Shown piece by piece: positions 7,436 to 24,938 of a stretch of DNA of 64,000 bases. The notes under the pieces were generated by a model. That model was given only the letters and a program-made list of their open reading frames with translations, was not told where the DNA came from and ran no database searches. The stretch lies in contig JAFXAN010000112.1 in the NCBI GenBank assembly GCA_017517035.1, positions 3,648-67,647 of the forward strand, in the 5' to 3' direction. How positions within the stretch are numbered: the stretch's first letter is position 1; each line of letters starts with the position of its first letter. Made by a program: the position numbers and the translations under genes. This DNA comes from Clostridia bacterium (GTDB lineage: Bacteria > Bacillota > Clostridia > Oscillospirales > CAG-272).

Positions 7436-7477
7436 TATAACGCCTCCTACAGAACAAATTCTTTAGATTTTTTGAGA

Positions 7478-8051: not shown

Positions 8052-8921
8052 ATGGCAAGAAAACGCAGTAAAAGTTTGAAGATTGAGCTTATTATATTAG
8101 CAATTTTTGTAATAATTGCCGGCTATAATTACTATCAGAAGATGAAGTCGGCGGAGCTTGTTGATGACACTGTTGAGCTTCATATAATTGATGTTGGACA
8201 GGGAGACAGCGTACTGATAAAGACAAAGGCGGGTAATATTCTGATAGATGCGGGAACAGGTGAGAGCGAGGAAGCTCTTTCACATTATCTTTATTCTGTA
8301 GGCGTTGACAGCTTTGAATATTGCATATTTACCCATCCTCATGAGGATCATATCGGCGGAGCGGACATGATCATGGAGAATTATGATGTGAGAAATGTAA
8401 TAATTTCGCCTGCCGTTACCGATACTGTCACATTTGAAAGACTTATTGATGCGCTTGAAAGAAGCGATGCGAATATTATTGAAGCCGTGCCCGATTCAAA
8501 ATATTCGGTGGGTGATGTTGAGATAATGATAATGGGGCCTATTGAGCTTGAAGACAGAGATCTCAATAACTCAAGTGTTATAACGAGGGTAAGTTATGGT
8601 GCTGTGAGGATGATGTTTACGGGAGATGCGGAGAAAAAACAGGAAAATGATATTCTCCATAGATATTCTGTTTTCGACCTTGATTGTGATTTTCTGAAAA
8701 TGGGACACCACGGCTCATCAACATCAAGTTCGGAGGATTTTGTTTTTGCTGTTTCACCATATCTTGCGGCGATCTCCTGCGGAATGGATAATGAATACGG
8801 TCATCCTCACAGCGAGATATTATCGCTTCTTGAGCGAGAAGAAATTGAGTATCACAGAACCGATTTGATGGGCGATATTGTCTATGTTTGTGACGGTAAG
8901 AATTTAGAGCTTAAAAATTGA
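8052..8921 (+). CDS. ComEC/Rec2-related metallo-beta-lactamase-fold hydrolase with an N-terminal TM anchor
   Basis: HIIDVGQGDSVLI and HPHEDHIGG (HxHxDH) motifs, plus GHHGS. ATG at 8052 follows GGAGAG; the ORF-track 5' extension was discarded. Confidence 0.8.
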   Translation: MARKRSKSLKIELIILAIFVIIAGYNYYQKMKSAELVDDTVELHIIDVGQGDSVLIKTKAGNILIDAGTGESEEALSHYLYSVGVDSFEYCIFTHPHEDHIGGADMIMENYDVRNVIISPAVTDTVTFERLIDALERSDANIIEAVPDSKYSVGDVEIMIMGPIELEDRDLNNSSVITRVSYGAVRMMFTGDAEKKQENDILHRYSVFDLDCDFLKMGHHGSSTSSSEDFVFAVSPYLAAISCGMDNEYGHPHSEILSLLEREEIEYHRTDLMGDIVYVCDGKNLELKN

Positions 8922-8966
8922 TTTGAAAGTCGGAAAAAAATCAGTGAAAAATAGGTAAGAATTTCC

Positions 8967-8995
8967 TTGACATCGGTTTGTTTCGATGATATAAT
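8967..8995 (+). promoter_or_regulatory. sigA-type promoter upstream of the aldose epimerase / glycoside hydrolase genes
   Basis: TTGACA (8967-8972), 17 nt, TATAAT (8990-8995) with an upstream TG. Confidence 0.55.
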
Positions 8996-9039
8996 CGTGT
9001 CAAACAGTAATATTATAATGTTTTAACGGGTACAAAAGT

Positions 9040-9897
9040 ATGGTGAATGATACAATCATTCTAAAGCAAGGGGAGTGGCAGGCAAATATTTGTCCTCGCC
9101 TTGGAGGTAATATAGTAGGCTTGACTTTTCGTGGTGAAAATGTTTTGAATCCTCTTGAAAATGAAGAATTATTGAAGTCAGATCCTTGTCTTTTTGGGGC
9201 GCCTGTTCTCATGCCCTCAAACAGAACATATGAGGGGCGATTTACCTTTGAGGGACGGGAATATACTCTGCCCCTTAATGAAAAACAGAACAACTGTCAT
9301 ATTCACGGACTTGTTATGTTTAATCGGTTTGAAACGATAAGCTGTGATGAAAATTCTGCGGTTTTGCGCTTTAGCGACAGAGAAAACATCAGCTATCCTT
9401 TCCCGTTTGAGTTGAAAGTCAAATATTCCCTTACAGATGACGGACTTTATTCTGCTTACGAGCTTAAAAATATTGGGCAGGGAAATATGCCGTTTACATT
9501 CGGTCTTCATACAACTTTTTCAGAGCCGGATTCCTTTTCTTGCCCCATCTCTTTGTGCCAGGAAAAGGATGCCCACCATATTCCTACGGGTAGATATATT
9601 CCTTTGAATGAGCAAGAACAAAGATATGCTCTTGCATCTCCTTCGCGAGGTGTGGTTATTTCAGGTTATTATCTTGCAGACGGAAATATTGCCCATATAG
9701 GCGAATATGAGTACAGAGTTTCGGACAATTTCGACCACTGGATACTGTTTAACCGTCGCGGCGAATGCGGATTTTTGTGCGTTGAGCCTCAGTCGGGCGG
9801 AGTTAACGGTCTTAATATTCCCGACGGGCATAAGGTTCTTGCACCAAATGAAACGATATGCTTTGAAACCTTTATTTGCAGAGCATGTGATGCTTGA
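9040..9897 (+). CDS. aldose 1-epimerase (galactose mutarotase-like) family protein
   Basis: Size and beta-sandwich-type sequence with HIHG and HTTF-type motifs typical of the aldose epimerase family. Confidence 0.7.
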   Translation: MVNDTIILKQGEWQANICPRLGGNIVGLTFRGENVLNPLENEELLKSDPCLFGAPVLMPSNRTYEGRFTFEGREYTLPLNEKQNNCHIHGLVMFNRFETISCDENSAVLRFSDRENISYPFPFELKVKYSLTDDGLYSAYELKNIGQGNMPFTFGLHTTFSEPDSFSCPISLCQEKDAHHIPTGRYIPLNEQEQRYALASPSRGVVISGYYLADGNIAHIGEYEYRVSDNFDHWILFNRRGECGFLCVEPQSGGVNGLNIPDGHKVLAPNETICFETFICRACDA

Positions 9898-9929
9898 GAG
9901 AGAATTAAAACTTTTTGGAGGATAGTTTT

Positions 9930-11792
9930 ATGGAATACATGATTGGCTGTAATTTTTGGGATTCAAAATCCGGCACCGATATGTGGAAATATTGGGATGA
10001 GGATTCGGTGAGAGCTGATATTGAGGCAATTTCCGCCTGCGGTGTCAGATATCTTCGTGTTTTTCCGAACTGGCGCGATTTTCAGCCGCTGACATTTCTT
10101 GAGGGATGGAGAGGAAAGCTGACAGAGGTCAGAATGACAGACGACAGACCCTTTGAAAATGAATTTGGAATTGATCCTGTGATGATCGAGCGTTTTGAAA
10201 AATTCTGCGATATTGCTGCGGAAAATAATATCAAGCTTATTGTTGCGGTCATAACAGGCTGGATGAGCGGAAGACTCTTTTTGCCTCCCGCACTTCAGGG
10301 AAGAAATCCCATTACCGATCCTATGGTTCTCAAATGGGAGATCCTTTTTGCAAGGGGATTTGTCAGATTTCTTCGCCATAGAAAAGAGATCGTCTATTGG
10401 GATCTTGGCAACGAATGTAACTGCCTTGGAGCAACTCCCGACAGTACCTCCGCTTGGCTTTGGACATCTACCATAAGAAATGCCATTCTTTCCGAGGATA
10501 ATACGAGAAAGATTATGTCGGGTATGCACGGTCTTTCCGTCGATCCCGATGTCTATCCCTTTACAATTCAGGATCAGGGAAGCCTTACAGATGTGCTTAC
10601 CCCTCATCCATATCCGTCACCGACTGTTGGCGGCGATGTTGATAAAGCTAACAATCTGAGGACTACCCTTATACCCACTGCACAGGTTGTGTATTATGAG
10701 GGAGTTGGCGGCAAGCCTGCAATGATACAGGAGAGCGGTACCTTTAACGATATGGTATGCTCAAAGGATATTTCCGCACAATTTATGAGAGTTAATCTTC
10801 TTTCCGGATGGGCGCATGGTTCTATCGGATATCTCTGGTGGTGCGCAATGGAGCATCTTCATCTGAAAAATCCCCCCTATTCCTGGAGCATGATCGAACG
10901 AGAGCTTGGAATACTTAATCTTGACCGTTCTCCAAAGCCTGTTGCGCTTGAAATGAAGAGAATGACAGAGCTTTTCGACAGACTTGATCTTTATGAGCTT
11001 CCGAGAAGAGATACAAATGCAGTTTGCGTTACCACAAAGGGTCAGTCGAACTATTGGCATATAGCAGCAACCTCGTATGTTCTTTCAAAGCAGGCGGGAC
11101 TTGACATGGAATTCCGTCATTATACCCAAAAATTGCCCGATGCAAAAATATATATCGTTCCTTCTATTACTTCGTGGGCTCCTCTCGGCAAGGATATGCT
11201 TGATCAGCTTATTGAGAGGGCAGAGCAGGGGGCAAGCGTTCTCTTTACAACCGATACGGGAATGATAACCACCTTTGAAAGTCTTACGGGACTTCGTTCT
11301 TTCGGAATGGAAAAGGAGAATCAGCAGCACATAATGAAGCTTGACGGTGTCGAACTTCCTTTCTCATATGAGCAGAAATATCTTTTGACCTCCATTGGTG
11401 CAGAGGTGCTTTCAAAGGACGATGACGGAACTGTTATTTTTTCAAGAAACAAGGTTGGCAAGGGATATATCTATATGCTGAATTTCCCGCTTGAGAAGAT
11501 AATCTGGGGCAAGGCTCGTGTCTTTTCGGATAAAACAAAGCCTTATTATAAGATTTATGAGAAGCTTACCGAAAAAGTGGAGCTTGATAGAATTTGTGTA
11601 AGCGCAAACCCCGATATCGGTGTTACTCAGCACCGCCATGAGGACGGAAGCTATACTGTTGTTGCAATAAACTATACAGATAAGGCTCTTGACGGTGAGC
11701 TTGATTTCTTCGGTAGAAAATACTCTGTAATTTATGGCGACGAACACAATATAGGCGCTTGTGATGCGGCTATATTCAAGATTGAGGCGTGA
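9930..11792 (+). CDS. TIM-barrel glycoside hydrolase (clan GH-A-like) with a C-terminal accessory domain
   Basis: WDLGNECN (acid/base NE motif) and IQESGT (candidate nucleophile Glu). ATG at 9930 follows GGAGGA. Confidence 0.65.
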   Translation: MEYMIGCNFWDSKSGTDMWKYWDEDSVRADIEAISACGVRYLRVFPNWRDFQPLTFLEGWRGKLTEVRMTDDRPFENEFGIDPVMIERFEKFCDIAAENNIKLIVAVITGWMSGRLFLPPALQGRNPITDPMVLKWEILFARGFVRFLRHRKEIVYWDLGNECNCLGATPDSTSAWLWTSTIRNAILSEDNTRKIMSGMHGLSVDPDVYPFTIQDQGSLTDVLTPHPYPSPTVGGDVDKANNLRTTLIPTAQVVYYEGVGGKPAMIQESGTFNDMVCSKDISAQFMRVNLLSGWAHGSIGYLWWCAMEHLHLKNPPYSWSMIERELGILNLDRSPKPVALEMKRMTELFDRLDLYELPRRDTNAVCVTTKGQSNYWHIAATSYVLSKQAGLDMEFRHYTQKLPDAKIYIVPSITSWAPLGKDMLDQLIERAEQGASVLFTTDTGMITTFESLTGLRSFGMEKENQQHIMKLDGVELPFSYEQKYLLTSIGAEVLSKDDDGTVIFSRNKVGKGYIYMLNFPLEKIIWGKARVFSDKTKPYYKIYEKLTEKVELDRICVSANPDIGVTQHRHEDGSYTVVAINYTDKALDGELDFFGRKYSVIYGDEHNIGACDAAIFKIEA

Positions 11793-11800
11793 ATTATAAG

Positions 11801-12466
11801 ATGAAATTATTTTTTGAAGCTATTGCAAAATTCCTTTTGGGTTTCATGATCGTTGCGGCTATACTGTTTTTGAGCGCCGGAAGTCTTCTGTATATTAATG
11901 GATGGATTTTCATTGCACTGCTCTTTGTGCCGATGCTTATACTTGGTGCGATTTTGTTTATAAAATCACCGTTGCTCCTGAAAAAACGACTTGATTCAAG
12001 AGAAAAGGAAAAAACGCAGAAGGGCGTTGTTGCTTTTTCGGGATTGTTATTTGTTATCGGGTTCATTGTTGCGGGACTTGATTTCAGATTCGGATTGTCG
12101 GTTGTTCCTACATGGGCGGTTGTGACAGCTTCGGTAATATTTCTGATCTCATATGCTCTTTATGCAGAGGTTATGAGAGAAAACGCATATCTTTCAAGAA
12201 AAATTGAGGTGCAGGAGGGGCAGAGTGTGGTGAGCACGGGGCTTTACGGAATAGTCCGTCATCCCATGTATGCCGCAACTGTATGGCTTTTCCTCTCGAT
12301 CCCGATAGTTTTAGGCTCATTCTGGGCGCTGATTTGCTTTTTACCTTATGTTTTCATTATAGCGGTCAGAATAATTGACGAGGAAAAGCTCCTCTCAAAA
12401 GAGCTTTGCGGCTATGAGGAGTATAAAAAGAAGGTAAGGTACAGACTCATTCCCTTTGTTTGGTAG
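11801..12466 (+). CDS. isoprenylcysteine carboxyl / phospholipid methyltransferase family membrane protein
   Basis: Multiple TM helices and the GLYGIVRHPMY motif. Confidence 0.75.
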   Translation: MKLFFEAIAKFLLGFMIVAAILFLSAGSLLYINGWIFIALLFVPMLILGAILFIKSPLLLKKRLDSREKEKTQKGVVAFSGLLFVIGFIVAGLDFRFGLSVVPTWAVVTASVIFLISYALYAEVMRENAYLSRKIEVQEGQSVVSTGLYGIVRHPMYAATVWLFLSIPIVLGSFWALICFLPYVFIIAVRIIDEEKLLSKELCGYEEYKKKVRYRLIPFVW

Positions 12467-12472
12467 GCTTAT

Positions 12473-12640
12473 AAACAGTAATTTAGCGAACAGTCGAAGA
12501 CGTGTTTTTGTAGGGGACGGCGACCACGACGTCCCTCAAAAGACATGAAATAACCGTGAATTTTAAATGAAAAATGGGACGTCGAGGTCGCCGTCCCCTA
12601 CAGATCTGCGTTTTTTCATCGCACCGACAAATTACTGTTT
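12473..12640. mobile_element. MITE-like element with a REPIN-like doublet (core GGGGACGGCGACCNCGACGTCCC)
   Basis: Family TIRs at both ends, with inverted GTAG-headed GC-rich repeats. A sister copy lies at 43470-43637. Confidence 0.8.
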
Positions 12641-12711
12641 GATAAAATCTATAAAAATAAAGACCGGATCAGATGCTTTTTGCAAATGATCAGGTCTTTT
12701 AATTTTAAGAT

Positions 12712-13509
12712 TTACGCTTGTTTTTCTTTAAATACTCCCGGTGCGAAGCCATAGTGCTTTTTGAACTCACGGCTGAAATAACATTCATCTGAAAAACCAC
12801 ATTCCTTTGATGCCGCAGAAACGGTATATTCACCGCTCTTCAGCAGCTCAAGCCCTCGTTCGAGACGCATATGGTTGATATATGCAACGGGTGATTTTCC
12901 GACAGCAGAAACAAAAAGCTTACGAAGATAAACCTCGCTTATCGAGCACATTTCGGCAAGTTCACCTACGCTTATCTTTTTTGTTGTATAGTTTTCTGCA
13001 ATAAAATCAAGCGCCGGTGCGATTATGCTTCTTTGTTCCGAGGACATATAACTCACTGTCAGATCGTTCTTTAACGCTGATATTATTTCTGAAAGACAGG
13101 ATAAGCATTTTTCCATATATCCCGGAGTTTTTGTTCTCCATGCTTTTTCTGCCTCCTTGAACAGCTCAAGTAATTTTGCAGGTTCCCTTGGACGGTAAAG
13201 AAACGGTTCGCAGGGAAAATCATAAGGCAGATCAAAATTTATGGCATAGCAGGACTTTTGAGGTTTGATCTCTCCCGAAACATTATAGCTTGAGCCTTTA
13301 GGCATAAAAATCACAGTATTGGCATCGACTTCAATGTCTTTTTTATCCCAAAAATGGTATGTTTTCGGTCCTTCTCTGTGAAAAGCAAAGCCATGGGAAG
13401 GACGGTTTATATGAGTATGTGCATTTTTAGGCAGATCTGTCGGAACTTTTGTTGCAAGCACTATTTTGCTTGGGAAAATGTCTTTTAAAAGAAATTCTTT
13501 TCCGTTCAT
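12712..13509 (-). CDS. AraC family transcriptional regulator (cupin sensor plus HTH)
   Basis: C-terminal AraC HTH signature (ISEVYLRKLF...GFSDECYFSREFKKHYG). ATGA overlap with the upstream HAD gene. Confidence 0.9.
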   Translation of the reverse strand: MNGKEFLLKDIFPSKIVLATKVPTDLPKNAHTHINRPSHGFAFHREGPKTYHFWDKKDIEVDANTVIFMPKGSSYNVSGEIKPQKSCYAINFDLPYDFPCEPFLYRPREPAKLLELFKEAEKAWRTKTPGYMEKCLSCLSEIISALKNDLTVSYMSSEQRSIIAPALDFIAENYTTKKISVGELAEMCSISEVYLRKLFVSAVGKSPVAYINHMRLERGLELLKSGEYTVSAASKECGFSDECYFSREFKKHYGFAPGVFKEKQA

Positions 13510-14327
13510 AGCTTTATAAATCCGTTATCAATATCGGAAATAATCTTGGAGATGGCATCTTCATCGTTGCTTACGGTCACCATGTCTGCCGCTTTCTTTA
13601 CTTCAGGTTGTGCATTTGAAACCGCAATTCCAAGCCCCGCCGCCTTTAGCATTGAGATATCGTTATGGTAATCACCAACAGCAATAGTTTTTTTCATATC
13701 AATTCCAAGCTGCTCGGAGAGCTTTGGCAAAACATTGCCCTTTCCGCTTCCCTTGGGGAGAATTTCAAAAAGTGTTTTTTCAGAGCGGATAAAATCAAAT
13801 TCGTTTGCTCTCGGATGATTTTTCAGAAGCTCTTCGACCTTTTCAAGAACTCCGTCTCTGTGGTCAACGAATATTATCTTTGCCATCGGTTCATCAACAT
13901 CGTAATAATTCTTCGGAAGATAAGGCATTCCGGTTATCATTCTGAAATGCTCATTTGCAATATTGTCACGGCAGAAATATACCTTATCAAATGTGTTGAC
14001 CTGTATTCCGATTTCGGGGATATTAGTATCAATATATTCAACAAGCTCAAAAACCGAACGGGAGATTTCGAGAGTATATGTATATTCCATTTTGACATGG
14101 TCATATATTCCTCCGCCGTTTATGCACCCGAAGGGACAATTTGGCCTTACGGTTTCATACATCTGCTTTGCAAAGAAGGGCATTCTTCCCGTTATAAAGG
14201 TGAAATAGCCGCCTTCACTCTTAAAATATTTAATGGCTTCAAGATTCTTTTCGGAAATTATTCTTTGACTGTTCAGTAGCGTTCCGTCAAGATCTGTGCA
14301 TATAAGCAAGCCTTCAAATTTCTTCAT
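13506..14327 (-). CDS. Cof-type HAD-IIB sugar phosphatase
   Basis: LICTDLDGTLL motif I and GDYHNDISM motif IV. Confidence 0.85.
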   Translation of the reverse strand: MKKFEGLLICTDLDGTLLNSQRIISEKNLEAIKYFKSEGGYFTFITGRMPFFAKQMYETVRPNCPFGCINGGGIYDHVKMEYTYTLEISRSVFELVEYIDTNIPEIGIQVNTFDKVYFCRDNIANEHFRMITGMPYLPKNYYDVDEPMAKIIFVDHRDGVLEKVEELLKNHPRANEFDFIRSEKTLFEILPKGSGKGNVLPKLSEQLGIDMKKTIAVGDYHNDISMLKAAGLGIAVSNAQPEVKKAADMVTVSNDEDAISKIISDIDNGFIKL

Positions 14328-14514
14328 TCAATTCACTTCCTTTTTGCTGGAAATAATTATAAACCTTTTTTTCTGAAAAAGCAATAGTTTTTGAGAAAAT
14401 TGTTTCGTTTTGTTCAAGTGTATCGTATTATTCATTGACTTTTTTATGCGGGCAGAGTATACTGTGCTTGAATGATAAACCGTAATCTATCAAAACACAA
14501 AGGAGGCTTTTGAT

Positions 14515-16755
14515 ATGAAGTACATAACCGAAGCTGATAAAAGGCACATTGAAGGGAAATACCATCCTCTTGACGGTAGCTACGATCCATATAACCGTTT
14601 TGGATATAACGGATATGATTATGACCCCGAAAGCGGAATGGATAATGAAAAGATCAAAGAGGGACTTTATGCGCTCCTTGATGAGCTTGATGCAAAAGGT
14701 GAGCATCATCATGTGACAAAAGCAAAGGGATTTTCCTTTATTCTCGACAACACAAGAATTGATGTGAATGAGTATGATTATTTTGTTGGCTTCAACTGCT
14801 GGAACAGAATTATGTCTCCTCACAGAAAATGGCTGAAGGAAGTTGAGCAGAATGAAGAGATGAAGAGAATAAAAGCTCTCCGTGATTTGTGTTGGGATAC
14901 GGGAATTATCACAATGTGGCCCGACTTTGATCACACAACGCCTGATTGGGACGCTGTTTTTAAGCTTGGCTTTCCGGGACTTCTTGCGCGTGCGGAGTTT
15001 TATAAGGAAAAGCACAGAAGAGAGGGAACTCTTGATAGCGAAAAGGAAGCAGTTTTTGACGGTGTTATTCTTACCTATCAGTCAATTATGAGACTGATAA
15101 ACAGATTTTATGAATACTCTCTCACCCATGGCGGTGAAAAGAGCGCAGAAATTTCCGCTTGTCTTAAGAGACTTTCCGAAGGCGCACCGCAGAACACATA
15201 TGATGTACTTCAGATAATATATCTATATTTTATGTTCAGTGAATCTGTTGACTATTATCAGGTGCGTACCCTTGGTTACGGTCTTGATGCTGCGATCTAT
15301 CCCTATATGGTAAAGGATATAGAGGAGGGGCGATACACAAGAGATCAGATCGGAACATTTATTGCCCATTTCCTTATGCAGTTCTCCGCCATCGGCAACT
15401 ATTGGGGGCAGCCCTTCTATCTTGGCGGAAAACATCCGGACGGAAGAACAAAGATAAATGAAGCTTCGCATCTTATAGTTGAAGTTTATGACGAGCTGGA
15501 TATATATAACCCCAAAATGCAGCTTAAGCTTGATAGAAGCACTCCCATGGACTTCAGAAACAAGGTTCTCGACATGGTGAGGCGCAGAAACGGTATTTTT
15601 GTCTTTATCTGTGAGGACGGCATGGTCAATGCTTTGATGAAGTCGGGTCACTCCTATGAGGAAGCACTTGATGCTGTTATCACAGGCTGCTATGAAGTTA
15701 AGCCAAAGGGGGCAAACGGTTCAGGATGCACCCATCTCAATATGGTAAAGCCCCTTCTTCTCATTCTTAACGGCGGAAAGGATGAAATGACGGGTAAAAC
15801 TCTCATAGATGATGTTAAACCACTTGCAGAGCTTAAAACATACGATGAATTTTATCGAGAATATATCAGACTTGTTTCGCATTTTGCAGAGATAGCAATG
15901 GAGCTTGAGGATGCATATGATCCTTATCTCACATATTGCAATCCCGCAAACATGATGACGGGTGCATATGAGGAAGCGCTTATAAAGGGTGAGGATGCTT
16001 ATTTTAAGGGCATTAAGAACGGAAGCGGATTCCTTGTTTGCAGCTTTGCGAGCGCTGTGGATTCGCTTATGGCTGTTAAAAAGCTTGTTTATGAAGGCAA
16101 TAAAATAACTCTTGATGAGCTTCGTGATATTCTTAATGCAAATTGGGAAGGAAATGAAAAGCTGATGATGCTTGCCCGTTCACTCCCCAATAAATACGGT
16201 AATGCAGATCCCGAAACCGATATGACAGCGAAGGGGCTTGCCGCTTATATATGCAATATAGTAAATGGCAGACCGAATAAGAAGAACGGAAGATACGGAA
16301 CCCTCGCGCACTCTGCAAGACAGTTCATTGTTCACGGTGAAAAAACGGGCGCAACTCCCGACGGAAGAATGGCGGGATATGAGCTTTCAAAGAATGCTTC
16401 TCCCGTGCCCGGAATGGATAAAAACGGCGTTACTGCACTTATCAGAAGCGCACTAAGTATGGATCCATCAAACTTCACAAGCGATTTCTGCGTTGATGTT
16501 ATGCTTCATCCGTCTGCCGTTGAAGGGGACGAGGGACTTGCGGTTCTGAACGGTATTCTCGATACCTATATGAACGGCGGCGGTTTTGCCATTCATTTCA
16601 ACATCATGAATGCGGATGTGCTTCGTGATGCACAGAAGAACCCCGAAAAATATAAGAATTTGCAGGTTCGTGTTTGCGGATGGAATACTCTCTGGAATAA
16701 TATGGCAAGGAGTGAGCAAGAGGCTTATATCCTCCGTGCGGAGAATATTATATGA
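14515..16755 (+). CDS. glycyl-radical enzyme (PFL/glycerol-dehydratase superfamily), short form of 746 aa
   Basis: C-terminal glycyl-radical fingerprint LQVRVCGWN (Gly722, nt 16678-16680). TPDGR motif is present. Candidate thiyl loop is TGCYE (Cys392, nt 15688-15690). Confidence 0.85.
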   Translation: MKYITEADKRHIEGKYHPLDGSYDPYNRFGYNGYDYDPESGMDNEKIKEGLYALLDELDAKGEHHHVTKAKGFSFILDNTRIDVNEYDYFVGFNCWNRIMSPHRKWLKEVEQNEEMKRIKALRDLCWDTGIITMWPDFDHTTPDWDAVFKLGFPGLLARAEFYKEKHRREGTLDSEKEAVFDGVILTYQSIMRLINRFYEYSLTHGGEKSAEISACLKRLSEGAPQNTYDVLQIIYLYFMFSESVDYYQVRTLGYGLDAAIYPYMVKDIEEGRYTRDQIGTFIAHFLMQFSAIGNYWGQPFYLGGKHPDGRTKINEASHLIVEVYDELDIYNPKMQLKLDRSTPMDFRNKVLDMVRRRNGIFVFICEDGMVNALMKSGHSYEEALDAVITGCYEVKPKGANGSGCTHLNMVKPLLLILNGGKDEMTGKTLIDDVKPLAELKTYDEFYREYIRLVSHFAEIAMELEDAYDPYLTYCNPANMMTGAYEEALIKGEDAYFKGIKNGSGFLVCSFASAVDSLMAVKKLVYEGNKITLDELRDILNANWEGNEKLMMLARSLPNKYGNADPETDMTAKGLAAYICNIVNGRPNKKNGRYGTLAHSARQFIVHGEKTGATPDGRMAGYELSKNASPVPGMDKNGVTALIRSALSMDPSNFTSDFCVDVMLHPSAVEGDEGLAVLNGILDTYMNGGGFAIHFNIMNADVLRDAQKNPEKYKNLQVRVCGWNTLWNNMARSEQEAYILRAENII

Positions 16756-17609
16756 AAATTTTATCCGAAAAAAGATGTATAATCGGTGAAGGTCCAATAT
16801 ATAACGAGAAAAACGGACTTCTCTATTTTACAAACGGTTTTGGTGATGAGCTTTGCACTTATGACATAAAGACAGATAAAATAAGTGTCAGACCGCTAAA
16901 GGTTGGTTGCGCCGCATATGCTTTTGATGTAAGTGGCAGACTTATCGTTTCAAGGCAGGACGGTGTTTTCTATTTGAATGATGATGACAGCGTTGAGCCG
17001 CTTTACGATAGAAAAAAATACGATATCAGATATGCAAACGACATGAAGGTGGGGCCTGACGGAAGGCTTTATGTGGGAACACAGAGCGGAAAACGAAAGG
17101 GTGTTTCTGACAAGATCGATGGCAAGCTTTACAGCATCGATAAGGACGGAAATGTTAAAATACTCCTTGATGGTCTTATTCTCTCAAACGGTCTTGAATG
17201 GTCGATTGATGAAAAGAGATTTTACCATACCGACAGCGATACCAATATTATAAAAGAATATGATTTTGATGCAAAATCAGGTGAACTGTCTTTTACCGGA
17301 AGAGAAATCTATATTCATGGAGTTGATGGATTTACTATCGACAGAAGCGGAAGGCTTATAGTTGCTTCAATGGGAGATGGATGTATTTATGAGGTAGATA
17401 CCGAGAATATGAAGATCGTTTGTAAAACGGATTTTCCCATGGGAGCCCTTGCAAGCTGTGGGTTTTTCGGTGAAAATATGGATATGCTGGCGGTAACGAC
17501 TTCCAGCTACACTGTGGATATAGAAAAGGATAAAAACGCAGGCTTTACTGTGATAATGAAGCGCAGTACAGGCGGAAGAAAACCTTATTTGTTTAGGAGA
17601 AAGATATGA
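16752..17609 (+). CDS. SMP-30/gluconolactonase/LRE-like six-bladed beta-propeller protein
   Basis: GEGPIYNEKNGLLYFT, NDMKVGPDGRLYVG, SNGLEWS and DGFTIDRSGRLIVA repeats. ATGA overlap with the GRE stop codon. Confidence 0.8.
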   Translation: MKILSEKRCIIGEGPIYNEKNGLLYFTNGFGDELCTYDIKTDKISVRPLKVGCAAYAFDVSGRLIVSRQDGVFYLNDDDSVEPLYDRKKYDIRYANDMKVGPDGRLYVGTQSGKRKGVSDKIDGKLYSIDKDGNVKILLDGLILSNGLEWSIDEKRFYHTDSDTNIIKEYDFDAKSGELSFTGREIYIHGVDGFTIDRSGRLIVASMGDGCIYEVDTENMKIVCKTDFPMGALASCGFFGENMDMLAVTTSSYTVDIEKDKNAGFTVIMKRSTGGRKPYLFRRKI

Positions 17610-18241
17610 AAAAAATACTTTTAATCGGTGATTCGATAAGAGAGGGTTATGACAAATATGTAAAAATGGCTTTTGAGGGCGTTGCAGACGTGATTTATCC
17701 CAATGAAAATTGCCGTGATTCGGGGTATATTATAAGGCAAATCGTTTTTTGGAGACAGCGGATGCCCCTTGGGGAGGATATTGACCTTGTACATTTCAAT
17801 GCGGGACTTTGGGACGATCTTCATATGTATGACGGAAAAAAGCTCAATTCGATTGATCAATACGAGGAAAATATAGATAGAATATGCACTATATTTAAAA
17901 AGCTATTTCCAAAGTCGAAGCTTATTTTCGCGACCTCGACTCCTGTTCAGGAGGAGCTTTTCGGTGAGCTTAAGCGTTATAATAAGGATACAGAGGAGTA
18001 TAATGCGGTGGCAACGGCGGTTGTGAAAAAGCATGGTGGCACGATAAATGATCTTTATGCAATAACCAAGGATATTCCGAAAAGCTACTATAGCGATCTT
18101 ACTCATCTTTATACAAAGGATGGAACAAAGCTCTTGACGGAGCAGGTTGTTAAAACCATCGAAGAAGCACTTGGCATAAGGGGAAAGGCACTTGATTACG
18201 AAGCTCTTTTCTCGGATGCAAAGGATGTAATCGGGATTTGA
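17606..18241 (+). CDS. SGNH/GDSL-family hydrolase
   Basis: LLIGDSIREGY block I (GDS). ATGA overlap with the preceding gene. Confidence 0.8.
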   Translation: MKKILLIGDSIREGYDKYVKMAFEGVADVIYPNENCRDSGYIIRQIVFWRQRMPLGEDIDLVHFNAGLWDDLHMYDGKKLNSIDQYEENIDRICTIFKKLFPKSKLIFATSTPVQEELFGELKRYNKDTEEYNAVATAVVKKHGGTINDLYAITKDIPKSYYSDLTHLYTKDGTKLLTEQVVKTIEEALGIRGKALDYEALFSDAKDVIGI

Positions 18242-18259
18242 TTTGAATTTTTTAATTTC

Positions 18260-18428
18260 AAACAGTAATTTATCGGTGCGAAGAAAAACGCAGATCTGTA
18301 GGGGCGATCATTGATCGCCCGAAAAAACAAACGGCGTAAAATAACGATATTTTGAGCTGTTTATGAGACGGGCGATCAATGATCGCCCCTACGGATTACG
18401 GCTTCGACTGTTCGCTAAATTACTGTTT
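18260..18428. mobile_element. MITE-like element with a REPIN-like doublet (arms b and c), inside the GRE cluster
   Basis: Core and spacer are the same as in 5324-5489. TIRs AAACAGTAATTTATCG / CGCTAAATTACTGTTT. It ends 14 nt before the activase start codon. Confidence 0.85.
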
Positions 18429-18442
18429 ACATAAGGAGAATT

Positions 18443-19273
18443 ATGACAGGAAGAATATTTGATATAAAGCATTTTGCGGTTCATGACGGTGATGGAATCA
18501 GAACCACGGTATTTTTTAAGGGCTGCCCACTGAAATGTTTGTGGTGTCACAATCCCGAGGGACTGACAAGACCAAAGCAGCTTGCTTACTATGAACATAA
18601 GTGCATCAGCTGTGGTGAGTGTGCCACAGCTTGCCCTGCACACATCATTTCAGAGAACGGACACATATTTGACAGGACAAAATGTGATGGCTGTGAGCAA
18701 AAAGAGGTCTGTCTATGTGAGCCTCTTTGTCTTGGCGGTGCGCTGAAGCATTACGGTCGTGATGTGACTGTAGATGACCTTATGCCCGAACTTTTGGCGG
18801 ATGTTGATTTCTATAAAAATTCGGGAGGCGGAGTTACTCTTTCTGGCGGCGAATGCTTACTTCAGGCAGATTTCTGTGCTGAGCTGTTAAAATCACTTAA
18901 GGCACAGGGAATAAATACTGCAGTTGACACCTGCGGATGCGTTCCGAGAGCATCGATTGAAAAGGTTCTGCCCTATACCGATGTGTTCCTTTTTGATGTT
19001 AAGGCGATAGACGGAGATGTGCATAAAAGGTGCACGGGAGTTGATAATGCTCTCATTCTTGAAAATCTTTGCTTTCTTGATTCTGTGGGAGCAAAAAATG
19101 AGATAAGAATACCCGTAGTTCCCGGATATAACAACGGAGAGCTTCCGAAAATATATGAATTTTTATCGAAGCTCAAAAATATAACTGCTGTAAAGGAGCT
19201 TAAATATCATAATCTCGCTGGCTCAAAATATGAAGCCCTCAAAATGGAAAATAACTTGCCAAAATCGACTTGA
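18443..19273 (+). CDS. glycyl-radical enzyme activating protein (radical SAM)
   Basis: DGDGIRTTVFFKGCPLKCLWCHNPE radical SAM cluster motif, plus a ferredoxin-type Cys-rich insert (CISCGECATACP). Confidence 0.9.
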   Translation: MTGRIFDIKHFAVHDGDGIRTTVFFKGCPLKCLWCHNPEGLTRPKQLAYYEHKCISCGECATACPAHIISENGHIFDRTKCDGCEQKEVCLCEPLCLGGALKHYGRDVTVDDLMPELLADVDFYKNSGGGVTLSGGECLLQADFCAELLKSLKAQGINTAVDTCGCVPRASIEKVLPYTDVFLFDVKAIDGDVHKRCTGVDNALILENLCFLDSVGAKNEIRIPVVPGYNNGELPKIYEFLSKLKNITAVKELKYHNLAGSKYEALKMENNLPKST

Positions 19274-19280: not shown

Positions 19281-19309
19281 TTGACATCACCTCTCTTGCG
19301 TGTTATAAT
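19281..19309 (+). promoter_or_regulatory. consensus sigA-type promoter embedded in a 17-bp-arm dyad
   Basis: TTGACA (19281-19286), 17 nt, TATAAT (19304-19309). Confidence 0.6.
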
Positions 19310-19332
19310 AGCACACAAGAGAGGTGATTTTT

Positions 19333-20682
19333 ATGGGGAAAATAGATCTTTACGCAATGCGAGATGAGAAAACAGTTCTCAAAAATCCCCACAAGGGATG
19401 GTATTGGCATTATATAGATTGCGGCTACAGCCGTCCGAGATATAGAGACGATAAGGAGCTTATTGGTGATTTTACGGCGTTTCCAGGACTTGGTCAGCTT
19501 TATCTTCGCTTTGATATGGTGGATATAAACCCCAAAAAGGGCGTTTATGATTTCTCCTATCTTGATGAAATAATGGATGAATACGGAAAGCTTGGTTATA
19601 GCTTTTCTCTGAGAATGTGTACCTATCAGACTAATGTCAGAAGATGGGGAAATAATCCGATTGCAACTCCCGACTATGTAATAAAAGAAGGTGCAAAGGG
19701 TTATTATTATGATATAGTTGACCCATTTGATTCAAGCAAGCGTTATGAGGGACAGGCTTGGGAGCCTGATTATTCGGATGAGATTTTTCTCCGATATGCA
19801 GAGGAAGCCATGATGCGCCTCGGTGAAAAATATGACGGTGATCCCAGAATTGAATTGGTTGATATCGGTACATTCGGAAAATACGGAGAGGGGCATACCG
19901 AAAATAATATATATGATGAAGCTGTCATAAAGCGTCACATAGATATTGCAAGAAAAGCTTTCCCGAAAACACTTTTATATACTAACGACGCTATGCTTAA
20001 ACACAACAAGGATTTTTCAAAATCTCTTACTGAGTATTGTCTTTCCAATGACATTGGAATAAGAGATGATTCTATCTGTGTTACTTGGCATGCGCTTAAC
20101 AGTCCTTCATATGATACCATTCATTCAATGTACCTTTTTGAACCTTTTTTTGACAAAATTCCGGTTAATATTGAATTTGCACATAATGAACTTATAAGAG
20201 AAGATGTTTGGAAAGACGGTTATACCGCAATGGAGTCGTTGAAGAATACCAAGGCAACATATGCGGGATTCCACGATTACCCGGGCAGATTTTTGGAGAA
20301 AAACAGATATTTTGCTGAATATTGTGCCAACCGTCTCGGATATTGGTTTCGCCCCGATTTTCTTGAGCTTTCCGCATCCGGTGGAAGAATAAGCATAACC
20401 AATCTCGGCTGGGCACCCTCCTACAGAGATTATGAGCTTACTCTTTGGCTTACCGATTGTGGCGGAAGATCGCTTTCTCCGATAAAAATCGGTGGAAGCA
20501 GCGCATGGAAAGAGCAGAGTACAACGGTGAGCGAGTTTGCCTTTGAAAAGGCTGTTCCGGCGGGGCTTTACAGCGTTGCAATAGCTTTGCATGATGCTGA
20601 CGGAACTCCTATACTTATGGCTCTTGACGGAAAATATTATGAAAACGGAAAGTATAATATCGGAATTATAGAGATCAAATAA
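19333..20682 (+). CDS. DUF4832-like putative glycoside hydrolase
   Basis: NPHKGWYWHY N-terminal motif as I recall it from DUF4874/DUF4832-type proteins. ATG at 19333 follows AGAGGTG. Confidence 0.55.
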   Translation: MGKIDLYAMRDEKTVLKNPHKGWYWHYIDCGYSRPRYRDDKELIGDFTAFPGLGQLYLRFDMVDINPKKGVYDFSYLDEIMDEYGKLGYSFSLRMCTYQTNVRRWGNNPIATPDYVIKEGAKGYYYDIVDPFDSSKRYEGQAWEPDYSDEIFLRYAEEAMMRLGEKYDGDPRIELVDIGTFGKYGEGHTENNIYDEAVIKRHIDIARKAFPKTLLYTNDAMLKHNKDFSKSLTEYCLSNDIGIRDDSICVTWHALNSPSYDTIHSMYLFEPFFDKIPVNIEFAHNELIREDVWKDGYTAMESLKNTKATYAGFHDYPGRFLEKNRYFAEYCANRLGYWFRPDFLELSASGGRISITNLGWAPSYRDYELTLWLTDCGGRSLSPIKIGGSSAWKEQSTTVSEFAFEKAVPAGLYSVAIALHDADGTPILMALDGKYYENGKYNIGIIEIK

Positions 20683-20763: not shown

Positions 20764-21528
20764 GTGGATTTTGTGTTTTATGAAAACGACATTATAAATT
20801 TCAACATTCTTGATGTTCTGGAGCTGAAATATAAAAACAGCAGTCATAACAATTACGGTAGGAATTTTAATGCACTTTCTTTCAGAATAAGGTCTGATGC
20901 AAGGATAAAAACAAGTGAAAATGAATATGAGCTTTGCGATAATTCTATTGCTTATATTCCTGCAAGACTAAGCTATTATAGGGAAGCAAGCCGTGATGAG
21001 CTTATTGTTGTGCATTTTGATTCCACAAATTACAGCACGAAAAGCATCGAATATTTTTATGCGGCAGAGCCTGAAAAATTTGAAGCTCTTTTCAGAAAAA
21101 TTTATCTTTGCTGGGAGGAAAAGGCACCCGGATATAAATACACCTGTTCTGCAATTCTCAATGAGATATTTGCATTATGTTATGCTCAGAACCATCGTGA
21201 AAAATATGAAAAAACGAAAATACAGCCATCCCTTGAATTTATCACAAAAAACTATAAAAATCCGGATATTACCATTGGGGAAATTGCGAAAAAATCTTTT
21301 ATGAGTGAGGTCTATTTCAGAAAGCTGTTTAAGGAAGAATACGGTATTTCACCGCAAAAATTTATTACTAATCTGCGTATTCAAAATGCTGCTGGACTAA
21401 TTTCTTCGGGGTATTATTCTCTCGGAGAGATAGCAAAAATGTCGGGATATAACGATTATAAATATTTTTCCGTTGAATTTAAAAGGGTAATGGGAGTTTC
21501 ACCATCAAAATATACCTATAATTATTGA
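20764..21528 (+). CDS. AraC family transcriptional regulator
   Basis: C-terminal double HTH (MSEVYFRKLFKEEYG...GYNDYKYFSVEFKRVMG). GTG start. The nearby ATG is out of frame. Confidence 0.85.
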   Translation: MDFVFYENDIINFNILDVLELKYKNSSHNNYGRNFNALSFRIRSDARIKTSENEYELCDNSIAYIPARLSYYREASRDELIVVHFDSTNYSTKSIEYFYAAEPEKFEALFRKIYLCWEEKAPGYKYTCSAILNEIFALCYAQNHREKYEKTKIQPSLEFITKNYKNPDITIGEIAKKSFMSEVYFRKLFKEEYGISPQKFITNLRIQNAAGLISSGYYSLGEIAKMSGYNDYKYFSVEFKRVMGVSPSKYTYNY

Positions 21529-21806: not shown

Positions 21807-22637
21807 TCAATCTTCATTTTTATGTTTTATCAGATATTGCTTGGGTGTGATTCCTATTTTGCTTTTAAAGGCTCGAATGAGGCTTCCCACATCGCTAAAT
21901 GAGCAAAGATATGCACATTCCTGCTCGCTGTATCCGGCACGAAGAAGCTTTATTGCCTCGCTGATCCTGCGGTGAGTGATATAATCGAGAAGAGTGCTTC
22001 CCGTATGCTTTTTGAATGCGGTCATAAGGGTGGTTCTGCCTATATGAAGCTCCTTTGACATAGTTTCGGCTGTGATCTTTTTTCCGAAATTCTTGTCGAT
22101 ATATTCGAGCGCATCAATGATATAGGGAGGCACGGTTGTAAAAGAGGTGTTTGTGCCGATATCCTTTGAAAACTCCAAAAGATATGAAAGCAGATATAAC
22201 ACCAAAAACCTTTTTCTCAAAATATCATTTTCTGCTTTTATGCGGTTTATTATCATTTTGCAGATGTCTGTTTTACCGGGACTTGTTTTGATGATATTTC
22301 CGTTTTTTCCGAATACTGCAGCAAGACTATCCCATTCGGGGATATAGTTTTCAACAAATTCTTTTGAAAAAAGAAGATAGAGTCTGCTATATAATGTAGG
22401 CTTTCGTATGGCAACAAAATGGGGAGTTTCCGGGGCGGTGAGAACAATGCAGCTTCCGGAGCATTCTTCGCTTCTGTCGCTTAAAAGTATCTTGACATCG
22501 CCCGAGAGTATTATGTTGATCTCATAAAAATCATGCTCATGAAAATCTGCCACAGAAGAATAATAGCCTTGATTTTCATGAATATGAAGGTCATTCCAGA
22601 CATTTCCAAATCCGTGGTCATATAATCTGTTTTTCAT
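21807..22637 (-). CDS. AraC family transcriptional regulator
   Basis: Cupin-like N-terminus plus an AraC HTH (HIGRTTLMTAFKKHTG...). Confidence 0.85.
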   Translation of the reverse strand: MKNRLYDHGFGNVWNDLHIHENQGYYSSVADFHEHDFYEINIILSGDVKILLSDRSEECSGSCIVLTAPETPHFVAIRKPTLYSRLYLLFSKEFVENYIPEWDSLAAVFGKNGNIIKTSPGKTDICKMIINRIKAENDILRKRFLVLYLLSYLLEFSKDIGTNTSFTTVPPYIIDALEYIDKNFGKKITAETMSKELHIGRTTLMTAFKKHTGSTLLDYITHRRISEAIKLLRAGYSEQECAYLCSFSDVGSLIRAFKSKIGITPKQYLIKHKNED

Positions 22638-22892: not shown

Positions 22893-23768
22893 ATGCGCAA
22901 ATTTTTAGTTGATTTTCTTGATAGATTTGATTACCCCGAAGAGGCAAAGGAAGCACTTGTGAGCTGCTATGATGCGATGGCGGCGGATGAAGGTGCTGCT
23001 GCGGTTATGAATAAGCACCTTGATATTTATGCCGCAGGAGGAGATTACAAGCACTATGAAATGCTTGCGGAAACAACCACTGAGGCTCTGCGCATTGGTA
23101 AGCCTTGGCAGACGGCACATCTTGTTATGGTGATATTACTTTCAAAATATCTTTTGGAAAGATATGCCGCAAAGGGCATTGACGAGCAGAGATGGATAGA
23201 TATTGTGGATGATTTCAAATGTAAGCTTTTTGAATGCCATAATGTTTACCACATCTGGGGCAGCTTTCTCTGTAATTGGTGGGAGCAGAAACTCTCAATG
23301 AATATTTTCGGCGTTGGAAGATTTCAATATCAAATGAAGCCCTTCGGCAGGGAATATAAGGATGAAAATATTCACCTCACACCCGATATGAAGGCTCTCT
23401 CGATACATATTCCGTCATCCGGACCGCTCACAAAGGAGCTTCGTGAGGAGTCATACAGAATGGCAAAGGAGTTTTTTGCACCGTATTTTGGTGATCAGCA
23501 GGCGCTGTTTATGTGCTCGTCCTGGCTTCTCTATCCCGAAAATGAAGAGATGATTCCCGGCTCTAATATTGTTGATTTTATGCATGATTTCAAGGTTTTT
23601 GAGGTCTTTGAACCTGAAAAATCAAACGATCTCTGGAGAATTTTTGGAGATGCTTGTGTTCTTCCGTATGAGCTTTTGCCTCGGAATAATTCTCTGCGCC
23701 GTGCTTATGCTTCCCGTCTTTGCGAGGGCAAAAAAGTTGGTCTAGGAATCGGATTTTTTGTCAGATAA
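22893..23768 (+). CDS. conserved hypothetical protein, possibly an acyltransferase-like fold
   Basis: Long ORF with a good RBS (AGGAGG). No diagnostic motif could be recognised with confidence. Confidence 0.5.
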   Translation: MRKFLVDFLDRFDYPEEAKEALVSCYDAMAADEGAAAVMNKHLDIYAAGGDYKHYEMLAETTTEALRIGKPWQTAHLVMVILLSKYLLERYAAKGIDEQRWIDIVDDFKCKLFECHNVYHIWGSFLCNWWEQKLSMNIFGVGRFQYQMKPFGREYKDENIHLTPDMKALSIHIPSSGPLTKELREESYRMAKEFFAPYFGDQQALFMCSSWLLYPENEEMIPGSNIVDFMHDFKVFEVFEPEKSNDLWRIFGDACVLPYELLPRNNSLRRAYASRLCEGKKVGLGIGFFVR

Positions 23769-23942: not shown

Positions 23943-24938
23943 ATGATGAAAAGACCGTTGTTTGTTTTTGCAGGACAGTCAAATATGATGGGGGCTTGTG
24001 TTTACGAGGCTCCCGAGCAGATATATTTTGAAAACAGCTTTGAATATCTTCACAAGGCAAGAAGATTTGGTAATGACATCGGAGATTTCAAGGAATTCGG
24101 ATTCCCCTGCGGAGAATTTTCATATAATGATATGAAAAAGGCATATGGTGAATGCACTGATGCCGATTTCAAAAGCACTCTTGATACATATGCAGAAAAT
24201 ACATATTTCTGTCCTTCAATGAGCAATCTTGAGGATGAAGAAAAAAAGACCGTACTTTCATTTTATCACTTTTCGGAATCAAATCTCAGAAGAAGCACTT
24301 CTGTTGCTCCTTATATAATTAAAGGACTTGAGGATAATGGAATATCTTCCGCTTTTGCTCATATTGCAAAGGGCGGTGTTCCGATCAGCTATTATCTTGA
24401 GGGCGAGGCTGAAAAATATTTTTACGAAAAGGTCAATGATTTTTTTGCCGATTGTGAGAAAAAATTTGAGGGCGATGATATGAGTGAGAGGTGTTTCGTC
24501 TGGCTTCAGGGTGAATCTGACAACGGAAAAGGAACAGAATACTATCTCGATCGGTTGAGAGAGCTATGGTCAAGACTGAAAAAGGTTGGTTTCACAAAAT
24601 TCTTTATGATAAGAGTTCCTTATTGGTCTTCTATAGGAATTGCCGAGATAATGCGTGCAGAGGAGATCTTTTGCAAGGAAAATGAGGATGCATATATGCT
24701 CACAAGAGTTTGCTCATTTATTCCTTGGTGCGGTCTTGATACTGCCGAATGGCAGAATCGTGAGGATGACGAGGAGCTTTCATTTTGCCGTGACAGCTTT
24801 TACGGATTTGCTAATCAGCATATAAATGATAAAGGCTTCAGACTTGTTGCAAAATATGCTGTGCCGAATATTATCAGAATTTTTGAGGGGAAAGAGCCTG
24901 TTCTTGAGAAAGAAAGAGTAAAAGCATTAATTAATTGA
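23943..24938 (+). CDS. sialate O-acetylesterase-like (CE6-type, SGNH) carbohydrate esterase
   Basis: N-terminal FAGQSNMMG motif characteristic of this esterase family. Confidence 0.7.
   Translation: MMKRPLFVFAGQSNMMGACVYEAPEQIYFENSFEYLHKARRFGNDIGDFKEFGFPCGEFSYNDMKKAYGECTDADFKSTLDTYAENTYFCPSMSNLEDEEKKTVLSFYHFSESNLRRSTSVAPYIIKGLEDNGISSAFAHIAKGGVPISYYLEGEAEKYFYEKVNDFFADCEKKFEGDDMSERCFVWLQGESDNGKGTEYYLDRLRELWSRLKKVGFTKFFMIRVPYWSSIGIAEIMRAEEIFCKENEDAYMLTRVCSFIPWCGLDTAEWQNREDDEELSFCRDSFYGFANQHINDKGFRLVAKYAVPNIIRIFEGKEPVLEKERVKALIN

Follow-up and report, generated by a model that had tools for sequence, protein, structure and literature searches.

A Cys-x-Glu-type glycyl radical enzyme with accessory lactonase and esterase genes in uncultured gut Clostridia, a probable marker of a breakdown route for a sugar-derived acid or ester

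A glycyl radical enzyme operon with lactonase and esterase genes

The sequence analyzed here is a 64,000-nucleotide (nt) stretch from a Clostridia bacterium (GenBank assembly GCA_017517035.1, contig JAFXAN010000112.1), referred to below as the window. At 14515-19273, open reading frame (ORF) calls place four genes, all on the forward strand, which encode an oxygen-sensitive glycyl radical enzyme (GRE), here named GRE1, an SMP-30/gluconolactonase-type propeller (SGL), an SGNH hydrolase (SGNH), and a radical SAM activase (Table 1). The GRE1/SGL and SGL/SGNH junctions are both ATGA overlaps, each with a Shine-Dalgarno-like sequence just 5' of it. GRE1 carries the radical motif RVCGW at residues 719-723 and the Cys loop TGCYE at residues 390-394, and the activase has a CxxxCxxC motif plus ferredoxin-like Cys motifs. 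Upstream of GRE1, an AraC-family regulator gene and a Cof-type HAD phosphatase gene are both divergently oriented and overlap each other by 4 nt; the AraC protein is likely a substrate-responsive activator of the operon. An earlier note on this DNA, made from the sequence alone, had described the four-gene cluster with both overlaps and both motifs, the divergent AraC and HAD genes, and the DUF4832-like, AraC, and CE6-like genes downstream. All of these are present, the DUF4832-like and SASA/CE6-like matches being weak. An Rfam scan of the window returned one tRNA only, with no riboswitch upstream of the GRE1 operon.

Table 1. Features of the window in and around the GRE1 operon and at the second GRE locus
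Feature	Position	Strand	Evidence or remark
AraC-family regulator	12712-13509	-	PF12833, PF00165
HAD-IIB Cof-type (sugar-)phosphatase	13506-14327	-	PF08282 8e-58; TIGR00099 173 bits
Promoter-like site TTGACT-17-TATACT, upstream of GRE1	14435-14463	+	Consensus scan only; not evidence of function
GRE1, glycyl radical enzyme, 746 aa	14515-16755	+	PF02901 1e-80; PF01228 3e-22
SGL, SMP-30/gluconolactonase-type six-bladed propeller, 285 aa	16752-17609	+	PF08450 7.5e-46
SGNH/GDSL hydrolase, predicted (acetyl)esterase, 211 aa	17606-18241	+	PF13472 27.7 bits
Palindromic repeat in SGNH-activase spacer	18301-18389	.	Repeat also elsewhere in window
Radical SAM activase, GRE-specific, 276 aa	18443-19273	+	TIGR02494 308 bits vs cutoff 174
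DUF4832/GH42-like protein	19324-20682	+	Weak Pfam matches; own consensus promoter 19281-19309
Two AraC regulators downstream of operon	20764-21528 and 21807-22637		
NAT_N/GNAT_C protein, a few kb past GRE1	22893-23768		
SASA/CE6-like protein	23943-24938		Weak match
IclR (KdgR-like) regulator	47574-48335	+	PF01614, PF09339; KdgR 142 bits, below cutoff
Propeller pseudogene (327-aa SGL/NHL-type)	48349-48786	+	tblastn with intact L151 propeller
GRE2, 664 aa, different GRE family	48812-50806	+	Gly in RLYGF; Cys loop SAC339-C340-T341
GRE2 activase remnant	50817-51044	+	~45 frameshifted N-terminal and ~25 C-terminal residues, middle deleted

Placement of GRE1 among glycyl radical enzymes

GRE1 scored below the cutoff of every NCBIfam equivalog for characterized GREs (HypD, HpsG/HpfG, CutC, HPAD, IAD, PflD, and PFL). 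The best of these was HypD, with 248.8 bits against a cutoff of 1100, and scores were likewise low for HpsG (216/1000), CutC (187/1050), PflD (PRK09983; 173/1109), and PFL (97/994); the PFL2-3 subfamily model TIGR01774 failed as well (244.5 bits, cutoff 678). The best solved relatives were glycerol dehydratase (GDH; 216 bits), HypD (204), and Archaeoglobus fulgidus PFL2 (188). An AlphaFold2 (AF2) model of GRE1, with a predicted local distance difference test score (pLDDT) of 90.5, shows the complete GRE fold. Foldseek matched it with probability 1.00 to all GRE structures, and the CXE-type (Cys-x-Glu) GREs were roughly equidistant from it at query-normalized TM-scores (TMq) of 0.79-0.86, with 19-24% identity to solved GREs. 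Scores so far below cutoff, together with equidistant sequence and fold matches in the PDB, rule out membership of GRE1 in a characterized GRE clade and support the earlier note on this point.

When 1.84 billion cluster representatives were searched with GRE1, 1172 matches were obtained at E <=1e-30. The best 150 of these scored 245-741 bits and were mostly 680-750 amino acids (aa) long, with identity falling smoothly from 47% to ~28%; at least 150 uncharacterized 50%-identity clusters outscore the best solved GRE (216 bits) against GRE1. Because these best 150 matches outrank any solved GRE, GRE1 belongs to a large uncharacterized radiation of short GREs. Scanning a single genome for each GTDB species returned 274 GRE1 relatives, essentially all in uncultured Clostridia of gut and rumen; the best 80 of these loci all came from uncultured gut or rumen metagenome-assembled genomes (MAGs), assigned to Oscillospiraceae, Acutalibacteraceae, Christensenellales, Lachnospiraceae, and one Lentisphaeria. 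NCBI has a protein with the same sequence as GRE1, from a Clostridia MAG, under the name "hypothetical protein"; the second GRE of the window (GRE2, described below) is likewise named "hypothetical protein", and none of the ten homologue clusters looked up bore a name.

The view that 746 aa is unusually short for a GRE did not hold, given lengths of 759 aa for PFL, about 765-781 aa for PflD, 776 aa for A. fulgidus PFL2, and 787 aa for GDH, and given the complete AF2 fold. The GRE1/GDH alignment starts at GDH residue 162 and GRE1 residue 138, so that ~24 N-terminal residues are missing in GRE1 relative to GDH; the rest of the length difference would lie in internal loops. Some relatives are far longer (P0380, P0384, P0387, P0403, P0486, P0401, and P0408; 940-1560 aa), with the GRE part C-terminal behind a large N-terminal extension. 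Several gut Clostridia loci (L001-L004, L027, L046, L057, and L006) hold two or three short GRE paralogues each (744, 744/759, and 707 aa). These are ~23-26% identical to one another, each with its own AraC gene and some with beta-lactamase-fold or SDR genes, which suggests an expansion for different substrates.

Catalytic residues of GRE1

Conservation was scored on an alignment of 60 family members, in which H140, G391, C392, E394, R719, C721, G722, and W723 are invariant. In the HMMER alignment of GRE1 to GDH, C392 corresponds to Cys433, E394 to Glu435, H140 to His164, and Y302 to Tyr339. The substrate contacts of GDH are replaced: Ser282 becomes Gln249, which is followed two positions later by Arg251 (both invariant), Asp447 falls at a variable position, and Tyr640 becomes an invariant His599. 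In GDH, the Cys abstracts a hydrogen atom, the Glu is the base for the substrate hydroxyl, and the His is the acid for the leaving hydroxyl (PMC13450708). The CXE motif is common to all GRE 1,2-eliminases plus the isomerases YbiW, PflD, and HplG (PMC13450708). The earlier reading of the Cys loop as eliminase/dehydratase-type agrees with the invariance of its Cys and Glu and with the His aligned to GDH His164. Together, the aligned residues point to known eliminase/isomerase chemistry on a new substrate rather than to the new GRE chemistry that the earlier note had thought possible, and GRE1 would thus act as an eliminase or isomerase on a different, possibly anionic, compound. The family contains two Cys-loop subtypes, A (IRGCYETGVRAN...) and B (VITGCYEYK..., the subtype of the window copy), and SGL occurs with both.

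The propeller and the hydrolase

SGL matched PF08450 with 157 bits (gathering score 26.3) and regucalcin (3g4e) with 2.7e-25. The metal and substrate residues of regucalcin, whose roles we take to be those seen in the SMP30 structures, have aligned counterparts in SGL (E13, R93, N96, D97, N146, and D192), and SGL is predicted to be a metal-dependent lactonase. Its orthologues form a discrete group of at least 691 proteins at E <=1e-40; they share 52-78% identity with the window copy, the next relatives share at most 34%, and homologues are named "sugar lactone lactonase YvrE" in the source databases. SGNH matched PDB entry 4h08 with 8e-11, and catalytic blocks I, II/III, and V are kept in its orthologues as GDS10 (with Ser10), N65-A-G67, and D164-x-x-H167. 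In L008, the closest species-level relative of the cluster, a stop codon interrupts the SGNH gene (3516-4151) close to the 5' end and the GRE is called as only 594 aa (P0003), either through decay or through a MAG assembly error.

Conservation of the neighborhood seen from the GRE

Gene neighborhoods were compared in two ways: by tblastn mapping of the window genes over 80 species-level loci with 10-kb flanks and by unbiased clustering of all ORFs within 6 kb of the GRE in 83 loci. In the latter, a divergent, orthologous AraC gene (36-44% identity) was found in 64 of the 83 loci and an activase in 55, followed by an EamA transporter (13), SGL (10), SGNH (5), a SASA/CE6 acetylesterase (PF03629 5e-55; 5), and a beta-lactamase-fold protein (3-4). 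The conserved core of the GRE1 family is thus a divergent AraC, the GRE, and the activase, and most members have these three genes alone. Accessory genes stand between GRE and activase in the order GRE, [esterase], SGL, [SGNH], EamA, activase, and SGL co-occurs with EamA in 7 of the 10 SGL loci. KdgK-like, Gfo/Idh/MocA, and DeoR genes each recur in 3 of the 83 loci, which may reflect shared synteny; no other neighbor recurs beyond local synteny.

The full window arrangement is repeated only in the closest relatives, L008 (GRE 77% identical) and L154-156 (P0002, 84%). The ATGA start/stop overlap also occurs in L006/7 and L154-156. L154 and L155 also have the AraC-HAD pair upstream of their 84%-identical GRE, and most more distant loci lack it.

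The earlier note had expected SGL and SGNH to be conserved beside GRE orthologues, and this strong form of its claim failed: most loci carry only AraC, GRE, and activase. In the map of 80 loci, SGL lies near the GRE in 9, and this map together with the neighbor-joining tree rules out SGL as an obligatory partner of the GRE. A residue signature for SGL-linked GREs was also rejected, since no alignment column separates linked from unlinked GREs. A side observation from one SGL locus is a 573-aa product joining the EamA transporter and the radical SAM activase (L159, 7855-9576), which is either a fusion or the result of a missed stop codon or frameshift.

The GRE-SGL link seen from SGL

When present, SGL follows the GRE or an intervening esterase gene directly and on the same strand (L006/7, L008, L029, L031, L036, L039, L042, L059, L066, L084, L091, L092, L159, and L160). 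Across the 80 loci, all SGL matches within the 10-kb flanks fall immediately downstream of the GRE and share its strand; chance does not explain the adjacency. Starting instead from SGL, 4 of 5 orthologues with enough flanking DNA were GRE-linked. All five of these loci were reached from SGL alone. Besides L089, which has no GRE, they are four: in L091 and L092, SGL stands directly after a GRE, and in L159 and L160, picked for their long contigs only, the order is AraC, GRE (738 aa), [SASA], SGL, EamA, activase. At loci with a GRE identity of 38-50%, SGL is 52-65% identical to the window copy; in L159/L160, the GRE is 38-40% identical to GRE1 and SGL is 61-64% identical to the window copy, so SGL is more conserved than its GRE partner. 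The part of the earlier claim that stands is therefore a non-random link: SGL travels with a wide span of the GRE1 radiation.

These counts bear on the possibility that the operon is a mosaic, in which SGL and SGNH, as unrelated hydrolase genes, share no pathway with the GRE and simply came to lie between it and the activase. Such an origin would fit the presence of SGL in just 9 of the 80 loci, the lack of a distinguishing residue in SGL-linked GREs, and locus L089, where SGL stands between a phosphotriesterase-like amidohydrolase gene and an SGNH gene with no GRE. However, orthologous SGL genes keep the same position and strand next to GREs that are only 38-50% identical, 4 of the 5 contexts reached from SGL are GRE-linked, and SGL is accompanied by EamA in 7 of 10 loci. 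So many independent insertions are very unlikely, and we regard a mosaic origin as highly improbable.

A second, unrelated GRE locus in the window

The earlier note had also taken a locus at 48349-50806 as a recurrence of the GRE-propeller pairing. GRE2, encoded there, is only 22% identical to GRE1, further from it than GDH is, and belongs to a family of at least 343 members of 663-670 aa in which C339 and T341 are invariant and C340 nearly so. Because its Cys loop has no Glu, GRE2 is not a CXE enzyme. Its propeller is a pseudogene, with a TGG-to-TGA change at codon 89 and residues ~147 to 327 (~180) missing; residues 1-146 of the intact L151 propeller align to it at 85% identity through the stop codon. 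The activase is a remnant as well, the intact orthologue (L077, 8104-8937) being 277 aa long. The GRE2 propeller and SGL share only a 27-residue local match. As a replicate of the GRE1-SGL pairing, the second locus was rejected, since both families differ and its propeller and activase have decayed.

What survives of that claim comes from intact relatives. In L150, L151, and L152, the GRE2 operon consists of an IclR regulator, a DeoC aldolase, a Zn-dependent dehydrogenase, an FGGY kinase, a 327-aa propeller, GRE2, and an activase, and looks like an undescribed sugar or polyol pathway. An orthologous IclR gene precedes GRE2 in L077, L151, L157, and L158. The window locus lacks the aldolase, dehydrogenase, and kinase genes and retains an intact GRE2; L077 retains only the last 79 residues of the propeller, and the GRE2-family loci L153, L157, and L158 have none. 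Where present, the propellers are 86-94% identical to one another, and the GREs beside them share 62-86% identity with GRE2. Pairing with a propeller is thus also frequent in a second short-GRE lineage, unrelated to the first. In L158, an 873-aa call (11014-13635) joins AraC helix-turn-helix domains to a PFL-like GRE, with an activase gene next to it; either the regulator and the GRE are fused or the call is an artefact.

Another possibility is that the propeller, instead of being a pathway enzyme, serves the GRE in a structural or regulatory role, much as small subunits do in HPAD or benzylsuccinate synthase. A partner of this kind would fit the ATGA overlap in the window, L006/7, and L154-156, the higher conservation of SGL than of its GRE, and the highly conserved propeller directly upstream of GRE2 in an unrelated family. 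On the other hand, most GREs of both families have no propeller, GRE2 was kept while its propeller decayed in both the window and L077, an esterase gene stands between GRE and SGL in several loci, and a propeller subunit is not known for any GRE. By alignment, SGL also keeps every catalytic and metal residue expected in an active lactonase. Because the propeller is usually absent, esterases intervene, and the catalytic residues are intact, a structural role is unlikely, and we give it very little weight.

Proposed function of the GRE1 operon

From the gene content, motifs, fold, family distribution, and linkage described above, we infer the type of reaction, the sequence of its steps, and the class of substrate as follows. 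It appears moderately probable that this AraC-controlled operon uses a CXE-type GRE on a hydroxylated metabolite that forms lactones or esters, with optional hydrolases unmasking the substrate. The activase would install the radical on Gly722, from where it would move to Cys392. The Cys392 thiyl radical would then take a hydrogen atom from a hydroxyl-bearing substrate carbon, Glu394 would deprotonate that hydroxyl, and His140, as a general acid, would aid cleavage of the neighboring C-O (or other C-X) bond. The two hydrolases would act before GRE1, SGL by opening the substrate where it is a lactone and SGNH by stripping an O-acyl group, and would thereby supply the free hydroxy compound; in other genomes, this slot holds an EamA importer and SASA or beta-lactamase-fold esterases. 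The recurrence of esterases (SGNH, SASA, and beta-lactamase fold) in this slot fits the lactone/ester theme that the earlier note had proposed for the pathway. Many lactones hydrolyze spontaneously, and we propose that most family members can do without SGL because a lactonase that merely speeds a partly spontaneous hydrolysis is dispensable.

The most likely class of substrate, on the present comparison, would be a sugar-derived acid (aldonate or uronate) or another lactonizing hydroxy acid. SMP-30-type lactonases act mostly on aldonolactones. With an aldonate, thiyl abstraction at C2 and loss of the C3 hydroxyl could yield a 2-keto-3-deoxy acid, through steps as in glycerol dehydration. A bolder proposal is that, in uncultured gut Clostridia, at least two independent short-GRE lineages have propeller lactonases as dedicated partners and that the GRE1 family uses radical chemistry to dehydrate or ring-open a lactone-forming sugar acid. 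Carboxylated sugars would then be a substrate class so far not known for GREs, and the enzyme would stand in for Fe-S or enolase-type sugar-acid dehydratases in strict anaerobes; we offer this only tentatively and think it rather unlikely.

Several observations weigh against the proposed pathway or against its extension to sugar acids: (i) SGL is absent from ~87% of the 80 loci, SGL-linked GREs are scattered over at least 5 separate places on the neighbor-joining tree, and L089 has SGL without a GRE; (ii) the SGL family also includes non-lactonases, and SGNH scores under the Pfam gathering threshold (PF13472, 27.7 vs 32.9 bits); (iii) the roles given to GRE1 residues come from alignment to GDH rather than from model coordinates; (iv) among the 83 loci, neither microcompartment genes nor a conserved downstream catabolic enzyme stands next to the GRE, and there is no kinase or PTS (phosphotransferase system) gene, although the AraC-HAD arrangement hints at a phosphorylated sugar; and (v) the sugar-acid idea draws on known specificities of SMP-30-type lactonases and on a putative anion-binding role of Gln249/Arg251.

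A different substrate is also conceivable, namely, a plant or host metabolite other than a carbohydrate that is present in ester or lactone form (quinate or shikimate from chlorogenic acids and quinides, or an amino-acid derivative bearing a hydroxyl) and is freed by the hydrolases. The accessory genes are generic esterases and lactonases, none of them sugar-specific, and the conserved neighborhood has no kinase, aldolase, or isomerase. Hydroxyproline dehydratases are among the top NCBIfam and Foldseek matches of GRE1, and the hosts are herbivore and human guts, rich in plant esters. In contrast, the window copy is surrounded by AraC, Cof-type HAD phosphatase, aldose epimerase, and GH-like genes, and SGL has its closest relatives of solved structure among the sugar-lactone lactonases (regucalcin), with homologues named YvrE. 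A substrate of this non-carbohydrate kind is possible but, in our view, doubtful.

Surroundings of the operon

Upstream of the operon, the region at 5562-11792 encodes an S9/dienelactone-hydrolase-type esterase, a metallo-beta-lactamase-fold protein, an aldose 1-epimerase, and a GH5-like protein, and such carbohydrate- and esterase-rich surroundings are consistent with a sugar-derived substrate of GRE1. Downstream, the DUF4832-like gene gave only marginal PDB matches, to GH42 beta-galactosidases, and is co-located only in the closest relative, L008 (76% identity); its product is possibly a glycosidase, with a loose link to the GRE1 system. An Ldh_2 dehydrogenase gene is also among the downstream genes. 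The NAT_N/GNAT_C protein is possibly a further accessory gene product. In L160, a related NAT_N/GNAT_C pair fused to Amidohydro_2 (10026-11705) lies right after the GRE-SGL-EamA-activase operon, with 31% identity over 180 residues.

The 200-nt spacer between SGNH and activase contains a palindromic repeat, GGGGCGATCATTGATCGCCC, with 14 matches in the window against 0 expected, mostly as two inverted copies ~68 nt apart. Its other sites are 5362-5450, 27278-27298, and 37089-37177. The repeat is genome-wide, looks like a repetitive extragenic palindromic (REP) or miniature inverted-repeat transposable element (MITE) type and is probably outside the GRE1 system. At 48-2327, a single ORF joins serine-recombinase domains (Resolvase, Recombinase, and Zn ribbon) to a SpoVT C-terminal domain, which may reflect a recombinase element inserted at spoVT; SpoVT-like genes also adjoin the activase in L005 and L151.

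Relation to known systems and significance

Among the known systems closest to GRE1 are the 1,2-eliminases, namely, B12-independent GDH (1R8W/1R9D), the trans-4-hydroxy-L-proline dehydratase HypD (6VXC), and the choline TMA-lyase CutC, with which it shares the 10-stranded barrel (TMq 0.82-0.85), the C-terminal Gly radical motif, the Cys-x-Glu loop, residues aligned to GDH His164 and Tyr339, and a dedicated activase with extra ferredoxin-like clusters. Unlike these enzymes, to which it is only 21-24% identical (equivalogs at 187-249 bits vs cutoffs of 1050-1100), GRE1 has no microcompartment genes and no downstream aldehyde- or pyrroline-5-carboxylate-processing genes, and it does not retain the GDH contacts Ser282, Asp447, and Tyr640; it has instead AraC regulation, an accessory lactonase, esterases, and an EamA transporter. 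The isomerases YbiW/PflD of "anhydroglycolysis" (8ID7, 8ID0, and 8YJO) share the CXE loop at TMq 0.79-0.83. In Escherichia coli, the Cof-type HAD phosphatase gene ybiV presumably adjoins ybiW, as a Cof-type HAD gene adjoins GRE1. Both the CXE loop and a sugar-derived substrate are described for YbiW/PflD (PMC13450708). GRE1 differs from them in sequence (20-22% identity; PRK09983, 173 vs 1109 bits) and in having no PTS, kinase, or aldolase gene next to it. The intact GRE2 operon, with kinase, dehydrogenase, and DeoC aldolase, is nearer to the logic of anhydroglycolysis, but GRE2 has no Glu in its loop. A. fulgidus PFL2 (2F3O), a CXE-type PFL2-like enzyme of debated function, matches GRE1 with 188 bits and TMq 0.83; it is 22% identical, archaeal, and in another genomic context.

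SGL shares the PF08450 propeller and the metal and substrate residues with regucalcin-type gluconolactonases (3G4E, 4GN7) and the xylonolactonase XylC (7PLB). It differs from them in identity (about 25-30%), in forming a discrete group with at least 52% internal identity that is found almost only after short GREs, and in having no partner sugar dehydrogenase beside it that would make the lactone. The literature that we searched, with incomplete coverage, linked no GRE to SMP-30, gluconolactonase, or lactonase, save for unrelated co-mentions with sulfoquinovose, in line with the earlier note, and it gave no description of uncharacterized GREs in these gut taxa. A June 2026 review lists no characterized GRE class with a lactonase partner and notes entire GRE clades without an assigned function (PMC13450708).

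New here is a CXE-type GRE with an accessory set of lactonase, esterase, and transporter that is widespread in uncultured gut Clostridia. Newly assigned GREs have so far each revealed a gut-relevant pathway: choline to trimethylamine, hydroxyproline, sulfonates to H2S, and anhydro-sugars. For GRE1, the candidate substrates are narrowed by the linked lactonase, esterases, and transporter to hydroxy compounds that form lactones or esters, and the AraC regulator offers a reporter. The GRE1 operon probably marks an undescribed breakdown route for a sugar-derived acid or ester. If the substrate is indeed a sugar acid, this would be a new substrate class for GRE chemistry and a further way in which little-known gut taxa break down carbohydrates anaerobically.

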